Shown here piece after piece: positions 21,729 through 31,004 of a stretch of DNA of 64,000 nt. How positions within the stretch are numbered: the first letter of the stretch is position 1; each line of letters starts with the position of its first letter. The stretch lies in NCBI GenBank assembly GCA_963748625.1, contig CAVVJT010000010.1, positions 128,001-192,000 of the forward strand, given 5' to 3'. Both the position numbers and the translations under genes were made by a program. Origin of the DNA: an uncultured Chloroflexia bacterium (GTDB lineage: Bacteria; Chloroflexota; Limnocylindria; Limnocylindrales; CSP1-4). The notes under the pieces were generated by a model that saw only the letters and a list, made by a program, of their open reading frames with translations, had not been told where the DNA came from and did not search any database.

Positions 21729-21729
<1 letters not shown>
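20287..21729 (-). CDS. purF: Amidophosphoribosyltransferase, Fe-S type
   Basis: N-terminal MCG, LQHRGQESAG, VDDSIVRGTT; Cys in CVFE, PCFYG, CFAC. Confidence 0.98.
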
Positions 21730-24109
<2,380 letters not shown>

Positions 24110-24113
<4 letters not shown>

Positions 24114-24886
24114 GCCGCACCTCCCGCGACAGGCGCCGGCCCGGGCGCCACGTTCGTGAAGCTGATCCGACCGGTCTGCGCCCACTCCTCGGCGGACACC
24201 ACCAGCGAGCGGATGATCCCGAGGCCGTCGTCCGAGCCGATGATCGCCTCCACCGCCGTCTCCGGGTGCGGCATCAGGCCCGCCACGTTGCCCGCGGCGT
24301 TGCGCACGCCGGCGATCCCGCGCAGCGACCCGTTGGGGTTGCCTGCGTCATCGGGCCCGGCGACCGAACCGTCCGGGTTCGCGTACCGCCACATCACCTG
24401 GCCGTCGGCCTCGAGGGCATCCAGCGTGGCCTCGTCCGCGTAGTAGCAGCCCTCGCCGTGGGCGACGGGCATGCGCAGCGGGCGCCTGCCCTGGAGCTCG
24501 CGGGTGAACGGCGTGTCGAGGTGCACGGGCAGGAGCGTGACCTCCTTGCAGACGAACCGGAGGCCACGGTTCCGCAGGAGGGCGCCCGGCACGAGGCGCG
24601 CCTCGGCGAGCACCTGGAAGCCGTTGCAGATGCCCAGGACCGGGCCGCCTCGCCCGGCGAAGTCCGCCACCGCCCGCATGACCGGGCTGAACCTCGCAAT
24701 CACACCGGCCCGCAGGTAGTCGCCGTAGGCGAAGCCGCCCGGCAGCAGGATCCCGGCCACGCCGGAGAGGTCCGCGTCCTCGTGCCACAGGACCACGGGC
24801 TCGGCGCCCGCGACCGTCAGGGCATTGACCGCGTCGATGTCACGGTTGGAGCCCGGGAACAGGACGATGCCGACCCGGACCGTCAT
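24110..24886 (-). CDS. purQ: FGAM synthase glutaminase subunit
   Basis: [28 protein letters not shown]. Confidence 0.97.
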
Positions 24887-25182
24887 CCGCCCATCCCCGC
24901 GACCGCCCGGGCCTCTGTCTCGCCCAGCGGCTCGACCGTGAACTGTTCCATCAGGGGGTTGGACAAGAGCTCGCCCGCGAGGTGGTCGACGACGGCACGT
25001 GCGGCCGCCTCGTCGACGGCGGTCACGGTGAGCTCCACGCGCCGGCCGACCCGGACGCCGGTCACGCCGGTCACGCCGAGGTGCGGGAGGCTGCGCTCGA
25101 CCGCCTTGCCCTGGGGGTCGAGGATGCCGGGCTTGGGGGTGACGTTGACCGCGAAGCGGAAGGCCGGGCTGGTGTCGCTCAT
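24883..25182 (-). CDS. purS: FGAM synthase subunit PurS
   Basis: KPGILDPQGKAV...VRVGR...LLSNPLME. Confidence 0.95.
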   Translation of the reverse strand: MSDTSPAFRFAVNVTPKPGILDPQGKAVERSLPHLGVTGVTGVRVGRRVELTVTAVDEAAARAVVDHLAGELLSNPLMEQFTVEPLGETEARAVAGMGG

Positions 25183-26096
25183 CGGGCGAAGACGTCCTCC
25201 GAAAGGTAGCGGGCGAAGCTCGCCCCGGTGATGCGCTCGAATGCCTCGACGTAGCGCCCACGGGTGCCGGCGACCACGTTGTCCGGGAGCTCGGGCCCCG
25301 GTGCCGTCTTGTCCCACGGCTGCTGCTCCAGCCAGTCGCGGACGAACTGCTTGTCGTAACTGGCCTGGGCGCGGCCCGGCTCGTATGCCGCGGCCTCCCA
25401 GAACCGTGACGAGTCGGGGGTCATCACCTCGTCGATGAGGATGAGCTCCCCGTCAGGGGTGACGCCGAACTCGTACTTGGTGTCGGCGAGGATGATCCCC
25501 GCCCGCTCGCAGATGATCGACCCGCGCGCGTAGAGCGCGAGGGACGCGATCATGACCATGTTGGCGAGCCGGTGTCCGATGAGCTCGGCGACGCGACCCA
25601 TCGGGATGTTCTCGTCGTGCTGCCCGGCAGGTGCTTTCCAGGCGGGCGTGAAGACGGGCTCCGGCAGGCGGTCGGACTCGCGCAGGCCAGGCGGCAGCTC
25701 GATGCCGCACACGGTGCCCGAGGCCTGGTACTCCTTCCAGCCCGAGCCGCTGAGGTAGCCTCGAACGACGCACTCCACCGGGAGGACCTCGGCGCGGCGG
25801 CCCAGCATCATCCGCCCACGCAGGTCGGCAAGCACGCGTTCGTCGCCACCGGTGATGTCCTCGGGGAGATCGGCAGGATCCGTGGAGAGCAGGTGGCTCG
25901 CGATGATGTCCGCGGTCTGCGCGAACCAGAACCGCGAGAGGCCGGTCAGGACGCGGCCCTTGTCCGCGATCGGCGTGGGCAGGACCACGTCGAAGGCGGA
26001 CAGGCGGTCGCTCGCCACCAGCAGCAGCCGGTCTTCCCCCACTGCGTACAGGTCGCGGACCTTGCCGGACCGGACGAAGGCGTCAGCGAGCGCCAT
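25179..26096 (-). CDS. purC: SAICAR synthetase
   Basis: SGKVRDLY, SDRLSAFD, ECVVRGY, ADTKYEFG, TPDSSRFW. Confidence 0.97.
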   Translation of the reverse strand: MALADAFVRSGKVRDLYAVGEDRLLLVASDRLSAFDVVLPTPIADKGRVLTGLSRFWFAQTADIIASHLLSTDPADLPEDITGGDERVLADLRGRMMLGRRAEVLPVECVVRGYLSGSGWKEYQASGTVCGIELPPGLRESDRLPEPVFTPAWKAPAGQHDENIPMGRVAELIGHRLANMVMIASLALYARGSIICERAGIILADTKYEFGVTPDGELILIDEVMTPDSSRFWEAAAYEPGRAQASYDKQFVRDWLEQQPWDKTAPGPELPDNVVAGTRGRYVEAFERITGASFARYLSEDVFAR

Positions 26097-27447
26097 CGGA
26101 GCCTTCCCGTGCGTGTCCGAGCGGGGTTGACCGCTCGCGGACCTGGGCTTCGAGCGGCTCGAGACGCCCGATGATGGTCGGGACGTGGCGCATGACAACG
26201 TCGTCGTCGAAGCAGGCGTCGAGATCGGCCAGCGGCAGCTTCTGGGCGACCTCGGGATCGGTGGCCAGGAGGCCGTGCAGCGCGACCCGCTCGTCCGCGG
26301 CCCGCAACGCGCTGCGCTGGACGATGGCGTAGGCCTGCTCGCGGCTCATGCCGCCCTTCTCGACGAGGGCCAGGAGCACCCGCGAGGAGGCGTGCAGGCC
26401 ATGCCCGCGGTCGATGTTCTCGCGCATCCGCTCCGGCCGCACGACCAGCCCCTCGACCAGGCCCGTGGTCTTCGTGAGCATGTAGTCGAGCAGGATGGTC
26501 GCGTCGGGGAGGATCACGCGCTCGGCGCTGCTGTGGCTGATGTCGCGCTCGTGCCACAGGGGCTGGTTCTCGAAGGCGGTCGTCGCGTACCCGCGCAGGA
26601 GGCGCGCGAGCCCCGCGATCCGCTCGGACAGGATCGGATTGCGCTTGTGGGGCATCGCCGAGCTGCCCTTCTGGCCGCGCTTGAAGGGCTCCATGACCTC
26701 GGCGATCTCGGTGTGCTGGAGGTTGCGGACCTCGGTCGCGAGGCGCTCCAGGCTGCCGCCGATAATGGCGATGGCGGCGAGGAACGCGGCATGACGGTCG
26801 CGCTGCACGATCTGGGTGCTGACAGGATCGACCCGCAAGCCCAGGTCCGCCAGCACCTCGGCCTCGAGGTCCAGGCCCAGGTGCGAGTACGTCCCCACCG
26901 GGCCGCTGATCTTGCCCGTGCCGATCTCGGCGGTGGCTGCGGCCAGGCGGTCGCGGCCCCGGGCGACCTCGAATGCCCAGCCCGCGCACTTGAGGCCGAA
27001 GGTCGTGGGCTCAGCGTGGACGCTGTGGGTGCGGCCCATCATCACCGTGCCGGCCTCCTGGCGGGCCCGGGCGATGAGCGCGAGGATCAGGCGGTCCGCG
27101 CCGGCCAGGAGCTGCTCCCCCGCCGCCTTGAGCTGGAGCGCGAGGGCGGTGTCGACCACGTCCGAGCTGGTGAGGCCGAGATGCAGGAAGCGTCCCTCGG
27201 GACCCACAGTCTCGGCCACCTGCGACACGAACGCGATCACGTCGTGGTCGGTGGTCTGCTCGATCTCGTTGATCCGCTCGACGTTGACGACGGCGCGTCC
27301 CTCGATCGACGCGAGGGCAGCGGCGGGGACGAGGCCGCGCCTGACCTGCGCCCGGCATACAGCGATCTCCACGTCCAGCATCCGCCCGAAGCGGGCCTCC
27401 TCGGACCACAGGGCACCCATCGCGGGCAGCGTGTAGCGGCGGATCAT
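26083..27447 (-). CDS. purB: Adenylosuccinate lyase
   Basis: HLGLTSSD, GRTH, GSSAMPHKRNP, WHERDISHSS. Confidence 0.98.
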   Translation of the reverse strand: MIRRYTLPAMGALWSEEARFGRMLDVEIAVCRAQVRRGLVPAAALASIEGRAVVNVERINEIEQTTDHDVIAFVSQVAETVGPEGRFLHLGLTSSDVVDTALALQLKAAGEQLLAGADRLILALIARARQEAGTVMMGRTHSVHAEPTTFGLKCAGWAFEVARGRDRLAAATAEIGTGKISGPVGTYSHLGLDLEAEVLADLGLRVDPVSTQIVQRDRHAAFLAAIAIIGGSLERLATEVRNLQHTEIAEVMEPFKRGQKGSSAMPHKRNPILSERIAGLARLLRGYATTAFENQPLWHERDISHSSAERVILPDATILLDYMLTKTTGLVEGLVVRPERMRENIDRGHGLHASSRVLLALVEKGGMSREQAYAIVQRSALRAADERVALHGLLATDPEVAQKLPLADLDACFDDDVVMRHVPTIIGRLEPLEAQVRERSTPLGHAREGSDGAR

Positions 27448-28807: not shown

Positions 28808-30115
28808 TCAGGCCGGCTGCTGGGGCCGACGGCGCAGCGGCCGCCAGGCCCGCTCGATGGTCTGCGTCCGCTCCGGGCCGACGCTCACGAAGACGATCGG
28901 CACGCCTGCGTGGTCCTCGAGCGCCTGCACGTAGCGGCGCGCGGCCTCGGGCAGGTCGGCCAGGCTGCGGACGTCGTGGATCGGCTGTTCCCAGCCCTCG
29001 AAGTCCTCGTAGATCGGCACGGCGCGCTCCAGCGCGGAGCCGGACGACGGCCAGGTCTCCACCCGCTTGCCGTCCAGCTCGTAGGCCACGCCGAGCTTGA
29101 TGGTCTCGATGCCCGAGAGGATGTCCAGCTTGTTGAGGACGATGGCGCTCGTGGAGTTGACCGCGACCGCGTAGCGGAGCGGGACGGTGTCGAACCAGCC
29201 GACACGCCGGGCTCGCCCGGTGACGGTGCCGAACTCGTGGCCGCGCTGCGCGATGCCCTTGCCGATCTCGTCGAACAGCTCGGTCGGGAAGGGCCCGGAG
29301 CCGACGCGGGTCGAGTAGGCCTTCATCACGCCGATGACCTCGTCGACCTGGAGCGGCCCGATGCCGCCGCCGGTGCAGGCCCCACCCGCCACCGGGTTGG
29401 ACGAGGTCACGAACGGGTAGGAGCCGTGGTCCAGGTCCAGCAGCGCGCCCTGGGCGCCCTCGAGCAGGACATGGTCGCCGCGGCGCAGGGCGTCCTGGAC
29501 CAGCCACGTGGAGTCGTCCATGTGCGGCTCGATGCGAGCACCCCACTCGAGGCACTGGGCGACGAGGGCGTCCACATCGAAGGTGTCCGCGCCCATCGAC
29601 GCGAGCAGGAGGTTCTTGTCCGGCAGGGCGCGGCCGATCCGCTCGCGCAGGACTGCCTCGTCGACGAGGTCCTCGATCCGGATGCCCAGGCGCCAGGCGC
29701 GGTCGCCGTACGTGGGGCCGATGCCGCGCCCTGTGGTGCCCACCTTGGCACCCGCGAGCCGGGTCTCGTTGGCCTTATCGAGGGCGACGTGGTACGGCAT
29801 GATCACGTGCGCGCTGCGGCTGACGCGGATCTTGCTGGTGTCCACGCCCTTGCCCGCGAGCATGTCCATCTCGCGCAGCAGCGTGGCCGGGTTCACCACG
29901 ACGCCGTTGCCGATGACCGACGTGATGTGCGGATACATGACGCCCGACGGGCACAGCTGCAGCTTGATCGTCTCGTTGCCCACGACGACGGTGTGGCCGG
30001 CGTTGTCGCCGCCCTGGTAGCGCACCACCATGGCGACCTGCTCGGCCAGGAAGTCGGTGGTCTTCCCCTTCCCCTCATCGCCCCACTGGAGGCCGGTGAT
30101 CACGGTCGCAGGCAT
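28808..30115 (-). CDS. purA: Adenylosuccinate synthetase
   Basis: QWGDEGKGK, GGDNAGHT, EGAQG, YPFVTSS. Confidence 0.98.
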   Translation of the reverse strand: MPATVITGLQWGDEGKGKTTDFLAEQVAMVVRYQGGDNAGHTVVVGNETIKLQLCPSGVMYPHITSVIGNGVVVNPATLLREMDMLAGKGVDTSKIRVSRSAHVIMPYHVALDKANETRLAGAKVGTTGRGIGPTYGDRAWRLGIRIEDLVDEAVLRERIGRALPDKNLLLASMGADTFDVDALVAQCLEWGARIEPHMDDSTWLVQDALRRGDHVLLEGAQGALLDLDHGSYPFVTSSNPVAGGACTGGGIGPLQVDEVIGVMKAYSTRVGSGPFPTELFDEIGKGIAQRGHEFGTVTGRARRVGWFDTVPLRYAVAVNSTSAIVLNKLDILSGIETIKLGVAYELDGKRVETWPSSGSALERAVPIYEDFEGWEQPIHDVRSLADLPEAARRYVQALEDHAGVPIVFVSVGPERTQTIERAWRPLRRRPQQPA

Positions 30116-30328
30116 CAGGGCAGCCTCCCGGAAATGAAACGACCCCGGCGCATCGTGCCGGGGTGCTGGATACACGTCTCCCGCGTCTGCCCGCCGGTGA
30201 CCTGGCGGACCGGGTGACCGAAGGTGCGAACCCGTCTCACGGGGCGGATCCCGCGCCTTCCTCGAGCAACGGTTGTCCCTCCATCGCGGGGCCGGTCGAG
30301 GGCCGGCTTCCGAGGAAGGGCGAGTATA
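30116..30328 (-). promoter_or_regulatory. Structured 5' leader of the pur operon with terminator-like hairpin (riboswitch/attenuator candidate)
   Basis: TATACT -10 at 30328-30323; three-way junction 30319-30256; hairpin ACCCCGGC/GCCGGGGT (30164-30142) followed by CGTTTCATTTC before the RBS. Confidence 0.55.
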
Positions 30329-30518
30329 CGCGACGGGGGTCCCGTCCGACACGCTGGCGGGGGTTGCGGATCGGGGTCGAGGAGCAGGCCGACGGCGGCC
30401 GCCGCCAGGACTCCCCGCGTAAGCGCGCGGTGAGTGCGGCGTAAGGGCGCGTGCAGTGGCGGCGCCTACCGTGTGCATCCCGTCGCACCGCCCGCCGCAG
30501 CCGAAAGGAGACCCCCGG

Positions 30519-31004
30519 ATGAACCGGGTCATGCTGACCGGTCGCCTCACCCGCGACCCCGAGCTCCGCACCACCGCCGGCGGCAAGGCGGTCGTCCAGT
30601 TCTCGATCGCGTCGCACGAGTTCGTCGGCGGCAAGGAGAAGTCGGAGTTCCACTCGATCGTCGCGTGGAACCGCCTCGCGGAGACGTGCGGCCGCTACCT
30701 GGGCAAGGGCCAGCAGGTGGCCGTCGAGGGGCGGATCCAGACGCGAACCTGGGACGACAGCGATGGCAAGCGCCACTGGCGCACCGAGATCATCGCCTCG
30801 TCCGTCGAGATGCTGGCCGGGCGCCGGCGCCGCGACTACAGCGGTGACCAGGCCGCCGACGCGCTGGAGGCACAGGCCCAGGTGGCGGGTATTCCGCCGG
30901 ACGCGTCGGAGCCGGTGGCCGACGAGAGCGGCTTCGCCGTGCTGCCCGGCACGGACGAGGACGAGGAGGAGGACGAGTTGCTCGAGGAGGCCGTCGCGGC
31001 CTAG
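30519..31004 (+). CDS. ssb: Single-stranded DNA-binding protein
   Basis: MNRVMLTGRLTRDPELR...KGQQVAVEGRIQTR; AAAGGAG RBS. Confidence 0.95.
   Translation: MNRVMLTGRLTRDPELRTTAGGKAVVQFSIASHEFVGGKEKSEFHSIVAWNRLAETCGRYLGKGQQVAVEGRIQTRTWDDSDGKRHWRTEIIASSVEMLAGRRRRDYSGDQAADALEAQAQVAGIPPDASEPVADESGFAVLPGTDEDEEEDELLEEAVAA

Follow-up and report, generated by a model that had tools for sequence, protein, structure and literature searches.

The window analysed here, a stretch of 64,000 nucleotides from an uncultured member of the Chloroflexota, carries on its minus strand a purine biosynthesis operon headed by purA (Table 1). The gene order purA-purD-purB-purC-purQ-purL is kept in all five genomes from other genera that were checked. 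The upstream neighbour of the leader is ssb in the window and varies among relatives. The reading frame of purA remains open for about 170 codons 5' of the true start (window 28808-30634, minus strand), through the leader and on into the antisense strand of ssb; at such G+C, long ORFs often arise spuriously. A second purA with its own leader is present in the same assembly (G000 contig C1:26382-26569, locus L214, aligned to window 30136-30309). Compared with the window, its leader is about 90% identical, and its PurA shows 98% identity over the first 120 residues. Because the assembly is estimated to be 7.7% contaminated, this copy is probably a second strain that was binned in and not a paralogue.

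Table 1 Features of the purine operon and of the leader preceding purA (positions refer to the window)
Feature	Position	Strand	Remarks
purL	21729-24185	minus	Pfam; the name purL comes from tblastn
purQ-type amidotransferase	24110-25261	minus	Pfam
purC	25179-26198	minus	Pfam
purB	26083-27447	minus	Pfam
purD	27444 to about 28799	minus	Pfam
purA	28808-30115	minus	adenylosuccinate synthetase, 435 aa; heads the operon; ATG at 30115
GGGAGG	30129-30124	minus	ahead of the purA ATG
Intrinsic terminator	30132-30166	minus	stem 30164-30142; U-rich tail 30139-30132 (CGUUUCAUUU)
Purine-rich tract	30168-30183	minus	unpaired; CGGGAGA and GUGUAUCC; about 20 nt 5' of the terminator
Stem II (He)	30189-30211	minus	GC-rich hairpin
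Stem I (Hc+Hd)	30222-30258	minus	long irregular hairpin; loop CCGUGA closed by C-G
Small ORF 2	30115-30240	minus	GUG 30240 to UGA 30117-30115; 41 codons
Small ORF 1	30237-30269	minus	UUG 30269 (or AUG 30284) to UGA 30239-30237; reading from the AUG, MEGQPLLEEGAGSAP and stop
UCGAGGA	30259-30265	minus	3' strand of H1, within ORF 1
Box J, GGAGGG	30277-30282	minus	Shine-Dalgarno-like; 7 nt before the UUG of ORF 1
Hairpin H2	30291-30307	minus	GCCGG-CCCUCGA-CCGGC; variable; P2 of the first-pass annotation
5' pyrimidine tract, CCUUCCUCGG	30310-30319	minus	5' strand of H1; anti-Shine-Dalgarno-like (UCCUC)
-10 promoter box, TATACT	30323-30328	minus	conserved block starts at this hexamer in all aligned relatives
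Leader	TATACT box (30328-30323) to purA ATG	minus	about 210 bases 5' of purA; part of a 400-nt spacer
ssb	start 30519	opposite to purA	upstream neighbour

An extended -10 element of the form TGCTATACT occurs in most genera of the family (loci L223-L253 and others), the window's own version of this region being GCGTATACT, and the sequences of the relatives diverge 5' of the -10 box. A block CGATCCGCAACCC lying 40-55 nt 5' of this box (window about 30365-30380, minus strand) is kept in many members of the genus. Its conservation does not extend to the flanking DNA or to the upstream neighbour, and in some relatives it takes the shape of an inverted repeat, ATCCG-N5-CGGAT. This block may be an operator or an UP-like element of the pur promoter.

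With the spacer as BLASTN query, matches reaching from the -10 box as far as the ATG were found in 35 of the 36 other genomes of the genus at 70-81% identity and in none of the 24 genomes of a sister family with small genomes. A pattern made of three invariant stretches was run over 185,579 species genomes and returned 102 stretches, 80 of which were examined; 54 of these 80 have the spacing of the family and come mostly from MAGs of Chloroflexia, Candidatus Limnocylindrales or Chloroflexota. The purA start is recognisable downstream in 51 of the 54, two are cut by a contig end and one more purA start was seen by eye. A locus search of genome contigs based on PurA gave, among the matches listed, only relatives at 44-57% and was of no use for leaders.

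A covariance model built on 60 distinct leaders matches 39 of the 44 genomes of the family and two of the 50 genomes of a single sister family. Of these two, G191 has a full-length match upstream of the same purine operon and G109 a weak partial match away from purA (E = 0.009). The model has no match in 56 genomes from three other families of the class and none outside the family in a phylum sample of 151 genomes. In the window's own genome it finds the present locus and, on another contig, the 90%-identical copy before the second purA. A weak partial match at L256 (G175:C3:1568700-1568767), situated between two convergent genes and far from purA, was rejected; it consists of a hairpin, GCGCGGGAGAUGUCUACGCGC and a second hairpin and looks like a pair of terminators matched by chance. 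All of the 94 distinct leaders that were collected lie upstream of purA on the same strand, at a distance of 18-360 nt (median 35). As the leaders are phylogenetically related, every count given here overstates their independence. The leader is a conserved cis-regulatory element of one family of uncultured Chloroflexota, and the proposal in the first-pass annotation of this DNA that a regulatory leader with a terminator precedes the purine operon is supported.

The same annotation had recognised no known purine-switch family and had suggested a comparison with Rfam. This was confirmed with Rfam 15, which at gathering level matched nothing in the 64-kb window; when the threshold was relaxed to E<=10 for the leader and to E<=5 for eight divergent relatives, only noise appeared (mir-59, snoRNA). 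PyrR or other protein-binding leader families likewise had no Rfam match in the leader or in the eight relatives. Throughout the window's genome there is no match to the Purine (RF00167), ZMP-ZTP (RF01750) or Guanidine-I/ykkC (RF00442) families, for which control genomes were positive. The purA loci of nine genomes from four other families of the class have upstream regions that are short or unrelated and without Rfam match, and they give no hint of an equivalent known switch.

The leader was modelled as H1, H2, Stem I, Stem II and the terminator. On a MAFFT alignment of 60 leaders that was fitted to no structure, 91.0% of the cells of this model are paired versus 38-50% with partners slid, and 17 pairs change on both sides versus 8.2 +/- 1.8 after shuffling, a value reached by none of 500 shuffles. 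Among the 94 model-aligned leaders, which represent about a dozen genera and whose model-fitted alignment is biased towards the model, both-sided changes occur at 33 of 39 pairs (20.5 +/- 2.0 in shuffles) and in 261 cells (67.5 +/- 6.5), and pairing amounts to 88.6% versus 36-47% when slid. Three hairpins and the intrinsic terminator thus covary across relatives, and the conservation and covariation that the first-pass annotation wished to see examined in purA leaders of relatives are both present. Stem II is the top covarying helix of the covariation scan, with both-sided changes at all eight pairs and 91.5% pairing. For Stem I the corresponding values are 8 of 12 pairs and 88.8% of cells in the 94 leaders; its closing pair is predicted in 22 of 41 single-sequence folds. 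The terminator stem has both-sided changes at six of eight pairs and H2 at all four modelled pairs. H2 has no counterpart in locus L171 and is therefore dispensable.

The helix H1 (UCCUCGA/UCGAGGA) is paired in 95.7% of cells among the 60 leaders and is likely to be real. Outside the genus it appears in a shifted register, or the 5' UCCUC pairs with the GGAGG box instead; a pyrimidine tetramer of this kind lies within the first 32 nt or so in 78 of 92 leaders. The UCGAGGA strand could alternatively pair downstream with CCUUCGA. In the supported helices 215 G.U cells stand against 113 A.C cells, and 88.6% of cells are paired on the purA strand versus 85.6% on the other. The structure is placed on the purA strand because this G.U excess agrees with the orientation of promoter, terminator and genes.

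Five unpaired motifs are conserved, namely AGGAG(G), UYGC, CCCGUGAG, CGGGAGA and GUCUAYCC. The invariant CCCGUGAG lies inside Stem I (30243-30236, minus strand), and within the purine tract GGG, AG and U.UA.C are near invariant. The loop of Stem I is complementary to CRCGG(G) of this tract in 90.4% of cells versus 38-54% when slid. For a pseudoknot CCGUG/CRCGG between them no both-sided change was found in the leaders, both sides being invariant; a shifted but kept complementarity was seen by eye in the genus g5 and in L251.

The strings named in the first-pass annotation were all found on the minus strand, including TATACT, GGGAGG and the purA ATG at the places given in Table 1. It had drawn a three-way junction in which a stem P1 encloses two hairpins P2 and P3 with kissing loops. 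P1 (CCUUCCUCG, 30319-30311, with CGAGGAAGG, 30264-30256) is present as written and its inner seven base pairs, identical with H1, occur throughout the genus; the length of nine pairs is specific to the window, since the assembly has UU where relatives have GG, and the outer part CCUU/AAGG is confined to the two copies in the present assembly. P2 (GCCGG 30307-30303, loop CCCUCGA, CCGGC 30295-30291) is the covarying hairpin H2. The strings of P3 (GCGAUGG 30287-30281, loop AGGGACAA, CCGUUGC 30272-30266) exist too, but with 77.6% pairing they show no excess over shuffles, and the kissing loops are paired in only 33% of cells in the 60 relatives. Taken together, P3 and the kissing loops reach 61.1% versus 60.6 +/- 0.5 in shuffles, 98 of 500 shuffles being as high, and RNAalifold of the relatives leaves P3 out. 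The choice of strand was right, by the criteria given above and not by the two G-U pairs of P3 to which it had been attributed. The aptamer architecture as drawn is hence not upheld: P3 and the kissing loops lack covariation and the long P1 belongs to the window.

The hairpins and the terminator predicted further downstream are conserved and covary. Two terminator-like sites were found versus 0.3 expected from shuffles, and at least four U are found in the 8 nt after the terminator stem in 86 of 94 leaders. The distance from terminator to purA varies widely, and transcription termination is therefore favoured over masking of the purA ribosome-binding site. In one leader (L147) the terminator hairpin is lost and the frame that begins at the GUG of ORF 2 also stops 43 nt before purA; terminator and open frame seem to decay together there. 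Pieces of the leader are contained in two public runs labelled as RNA (X4 and X5), a contig of X5 spanning 30068-30220; such contigs cannot show ends, strand or level.

Several candidates for an antiterminator were considered and rejected. Pairing of the extreme 5' end (GCCCGGUCCU) with the 5' strand of the terminator reached a partition-function probability of about 0.2-0.25 in the main genus when each leader was folded only up to that strand. Its 75.6% pairing is no excess over the 75.0 +/- 0.5 of shuffles, its probability in the window is 0.02 and the partner of the terminator's 5' strand is inconsistent between genera. Pairings of the GGAGG box with GUCUA, of CUUC with GGAG and within a 'helix b' (CGAUCGCGC/GCGCAUCG) were assessed visually or with a crude covariation scan; none of these long-range candidates is consistent across genera.

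The leader also contains two small overlapping ORFs. The first consists of 10 codons ending in CCG-UGA, and its stop overlaps the GUG of the second (GUGA) inside the invariant CCCGUGAG. Stem II, the purine tract and the terminator all lie within ORF 2, whose stop shares an A with the purA AUG (UGAUG). A Shine-Dalgarno-like GGAGG box is situated 4-15 nt 5' of a start-like codon in all of 92 leaders, this codon being UUG in 75, GUG in one and the near-cognate AUC in 16. In 14 leaders (two genera and one outlier) the position of the UUG is occupied by UCG, and the GUG frame is opened directly by an AUC that begins one base before this position and keeps the spacing to the GGAGG box; in two further leaders an AUC at the UUG position is in the frame of ORF 1. 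Of 94 leaders, 79 have the complete arrangement of ORF 1, Shine-Dalgarno-like box and CCG-UGA-G. The GUG of ORF 2 would need reinitiation, as it has no Shine-Dalgarno box of its own.

Over a distance between GUG and purA AUG that ranges from 101 to 452 nt, 91 of 92 leaders keep the GUG frame open through the terminator as far as the purA start. Its first stop lies on or abuts the purA AUG (-3 to +4) in 55 of the 92 and at +16, inside purA, in 36; in detail the positions are +1 (42 leaders), 0 (6), -1 (2), -2 (1), -3 (2), +4 (2), +16 (36) and -43 (1). The stop at +16 is a UGA within purA codons 4-6. The distance from GUG to AUG is 2 mod 3 in 81 of 92 leaders, and the other phases still have a stop on the AUG. 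Stop-free leaders number 88 of 92 for the GUG frame versus 65, 51, 60, 67 and 18 for the five other frames. For the 36 leaders of at least 140 nt the GUG frame is stop-free in 34 versus 15, 17, 16, 20 and 8. Fisher tests of frame openness give p values of 2e-4 to 2e-10, which are overstated because the leaders are related.

A coding-type signal was sought in these frames and not found. In ORF 2 the entropy by codon position is flat (0.56/0.66/0.59), ORF 1 varies least at the third codon position (0.28 vs 0.41 and 0.59), and the non-conserved tails after the terminator have GC1/2/3 values of 0.70/0.72/0.75 vs 0.69/0.41/0.95 in purA. The 41-aa product of ORF 2 has no match in Pfam. Among the 79 leaders with ORF 1, 45 different peptide sequences occur (for example LLEEGAASAP) with no codon run or repeated codon. 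An open path and the placement of its stop look selected, and not the peptide.

In Escherichia coli the pyrBI terminator lies inside a leader peptide gene of 135 bp (PMC4824070, in its passages on this operon), and tight coupling of ribosome and RNA polymerase across this gene prevents the terminator from forming, as outlined in the relevant parts of PMC4824070 and PMC5021804. The leader described here resembles this architecture. It has a Shine-Dalgarno-like box with candidate starts where pyrBI (pyrL) and pyrE, as far as these accounts describe them, have a leader ORF with a ribosome-binding site. Its intrinsic terminator lies inside an ORF, and this ORF ends near the first structural gene of an operon for nucleotide biosynthesis, as is reported there for the leader ORF of pyrBI. 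Since pyrBI combines a leader ORF that has its own ribosome-binding site with a terminator inside this ORF and an end of the ORF close to the first gene, the leader is read, with moderate confidence, as a ribosome-coupled attenuator of pyrBI type that acts on transcription of the purine operon.

By analogy with these passages on E. coli pyrBI, a ribosome close behind RNA polymerase would block the terminator hairpin while it moves through the ORF, and it would also be handed on to the purA start. If the ribosome lagged or never started, the terminator would form and the operon would be off. With GTP or ATP in short supply, the polymerase might conceivably slow down at the purine-rich tracts (GAGGAAGG, CGGGAGA) and thereby set the coupling. 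Alternatively, the 5' UCCUC could pair either with the GGAGG box, which it would mask, or with UCGAGGA as a decoy, and so gate the translation of the leader. The covarying hairpins would serve as pause or gating structures. This more specific version, a relay of two ORFs through the terminator to purA that is set either by slowing at G/A tracts or by a ligand-gated switch of anti-Shine-Dalgarno, Shine-Dalgarno and decoy, is proposed only tentatively.

There are also differences from pyrBI. The operon is a purine and not a pyrimidine operon, its host is an uncultured member of the Chloroflexota, and two overlapping ORFs with a GUGA hand-over replace the single one of pyrBI. The starts are weak or near-cognate, three covarying hairpins lie upstream, and the stop overlaps the purA AUG. 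The tracts before the terminator are purine-rich, whereas those of pyrBI are U-rich; NTP-sensitive pausing of the kind seen in pyrBI would be conceivable at the conserved CGGGAGA about 20 nt before the terminator. Against ribosome coupling speak the weak starts and the missing coding-type signal. Furthermore, long open frames are common at 70% G+C, and the frame of purA itself is open through the leader in many cases. In addition, CCCGUGAG is invariant also in genera in which ORF 1 has no UUG. This invariance and the covarying helices indicate that constraints at the RNA level act too.

The explanations are ranked with ribosome-coupled attenuation first, followed by a riboswitch, protein-dependent attenuation, an arrest-peptide or codon mechanism and, last, the exact model of the first-pass annotation.

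An undescribed riboswitch, in which the hairpins and the unpaired motifs (AGGAG, UYGC, CCCGUGAG, CGGGAGA, GUCUAYCC) would form an aptamer for a metabolite of the purine pathway, is rather unlikely but remains the closest competitor. The aptamer would act on the terminator or on leader ORF translation, and the role of the open frame would be no more than to keep ribosomes on a long leader. The strong covariation of three hairpins, the invariance of the single-stranded motifs within a conserved structure, and the complementarity between the loop of Stem I and CRCGGG all fit this explanation. So do the exclusive link of the leader to one operon, a genome without known purine, ZTP or ykkC element, the lack of coding-type periodicity in the leader ORFs and, more generally, strong constraints at the RNA level beside weak ORF starts. 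However, no conserved antiterminator was found, the best candidate being at shuffle level and failing in the window. The pairing of loop and tract is without both-sided change, and P3 and the kissing loop of the first-pass annotation fail. A riboswitch would also leave unexplained the stops on the purA AUG and the phasing of indels in steps of 3 nt. Guanine, PRPP and ZTP riboswitches control genes or operons of de novo purine synthesis, according to the sections on them in a review (PMC7266159). The leader resembles the PRPP (ykkC subtype 2b), ZTP (pfl) and guanine riboswitches, as far as they are characterised there, in being structured and ending in a terminator before such genes. In contrast to them, it has no match in sequence or structure, a frame is open through it and an antiterminator was not found.

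Protein-dependent attenuation, by which an RNA-binding regulator with a logic like that of PyrR, TRAP or ANTAR proteins would bind the unpaired motifs and decide between termination and read-through, is improbable. The conserved single-stranded purine-rich motifs beside the terminator and the want of a clear RNA-only switch would suit it. The existence of additional regulators is hinted at by the conserved DNA block CGATCCGCAACCC before the promoter. However, neither PyrR nor another protein-binding leader family appears in the Rfam results, and the surroundings of the locus offer no candidate gene for such a regulator, the upstream neighbour being ssb and differing in relatives. The open frame would likewise stay unexplained.

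Still less probable is attenuation of the amino-acid or arrest-peptide type, in which a ribosome stalled at the Pro-UGA of the 10-codon ORF, in the manner of TnaC or at regulatory codons, would set the fold of the RNA. Proline before a stop codon is a poor context for termination, and ORF 1 ends in this way behind its Shine-Dalgarno-like box in the 79 leaders mentioned. The variety of its peptides without any codon run and the low variability of its third codon position argue against a selected peptide. Moreover, the frame of ORF 1 lacks a canonical start in 14 leaders from two genera, and the terminator lies about 75 nt downstream, inside the second ORF. The attenuators of trp and his type are similar in their short leader ORF, hairpins and intrinsic terminator; they differ from the present leader, in which ORF 1 has no run of regulatory codons and the terminator is inside an ORF. 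In trp and his, as the corresponding passages of PMC4824070 put it, the leader ORF is separated from the terminator downstream by more than 20 bp.

The three-way-junction aptamer with kissing loops followed by the terminator, exactly as first drawn, is very improbable: minimum-energy folding of the leader in the window does yield it, but this fold does not differ significantly from expectation for its composition (z = -0.67, 50 of 200 shuffles folding at least as well; z = -2.15 on the opposite strand), and the data from relatives on P3, the kissing loop and the outer P1 contradict it.

In the literature no paper on such a leader and no translation-coupled control of a purine operon was found in a search that was not exhaustive. 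For the search for riboswitches the case holds a caution, as covariation, a terminator and a missing Rfam match are insufficient and the reading frames of a leader should be checked as well. The element is compact and present as a single copy, and its roughly 90 natural variants of hairpins, ORF phasing and stop placement are testable in reporters. Apart from riboswitches, repressors such as PurR also control purine operons. If the ribosome-coupled reading is true, the logic of 'repression without repressors' known from pyrimidine operons would extend to purines, in a little-studied phylum of the soil.
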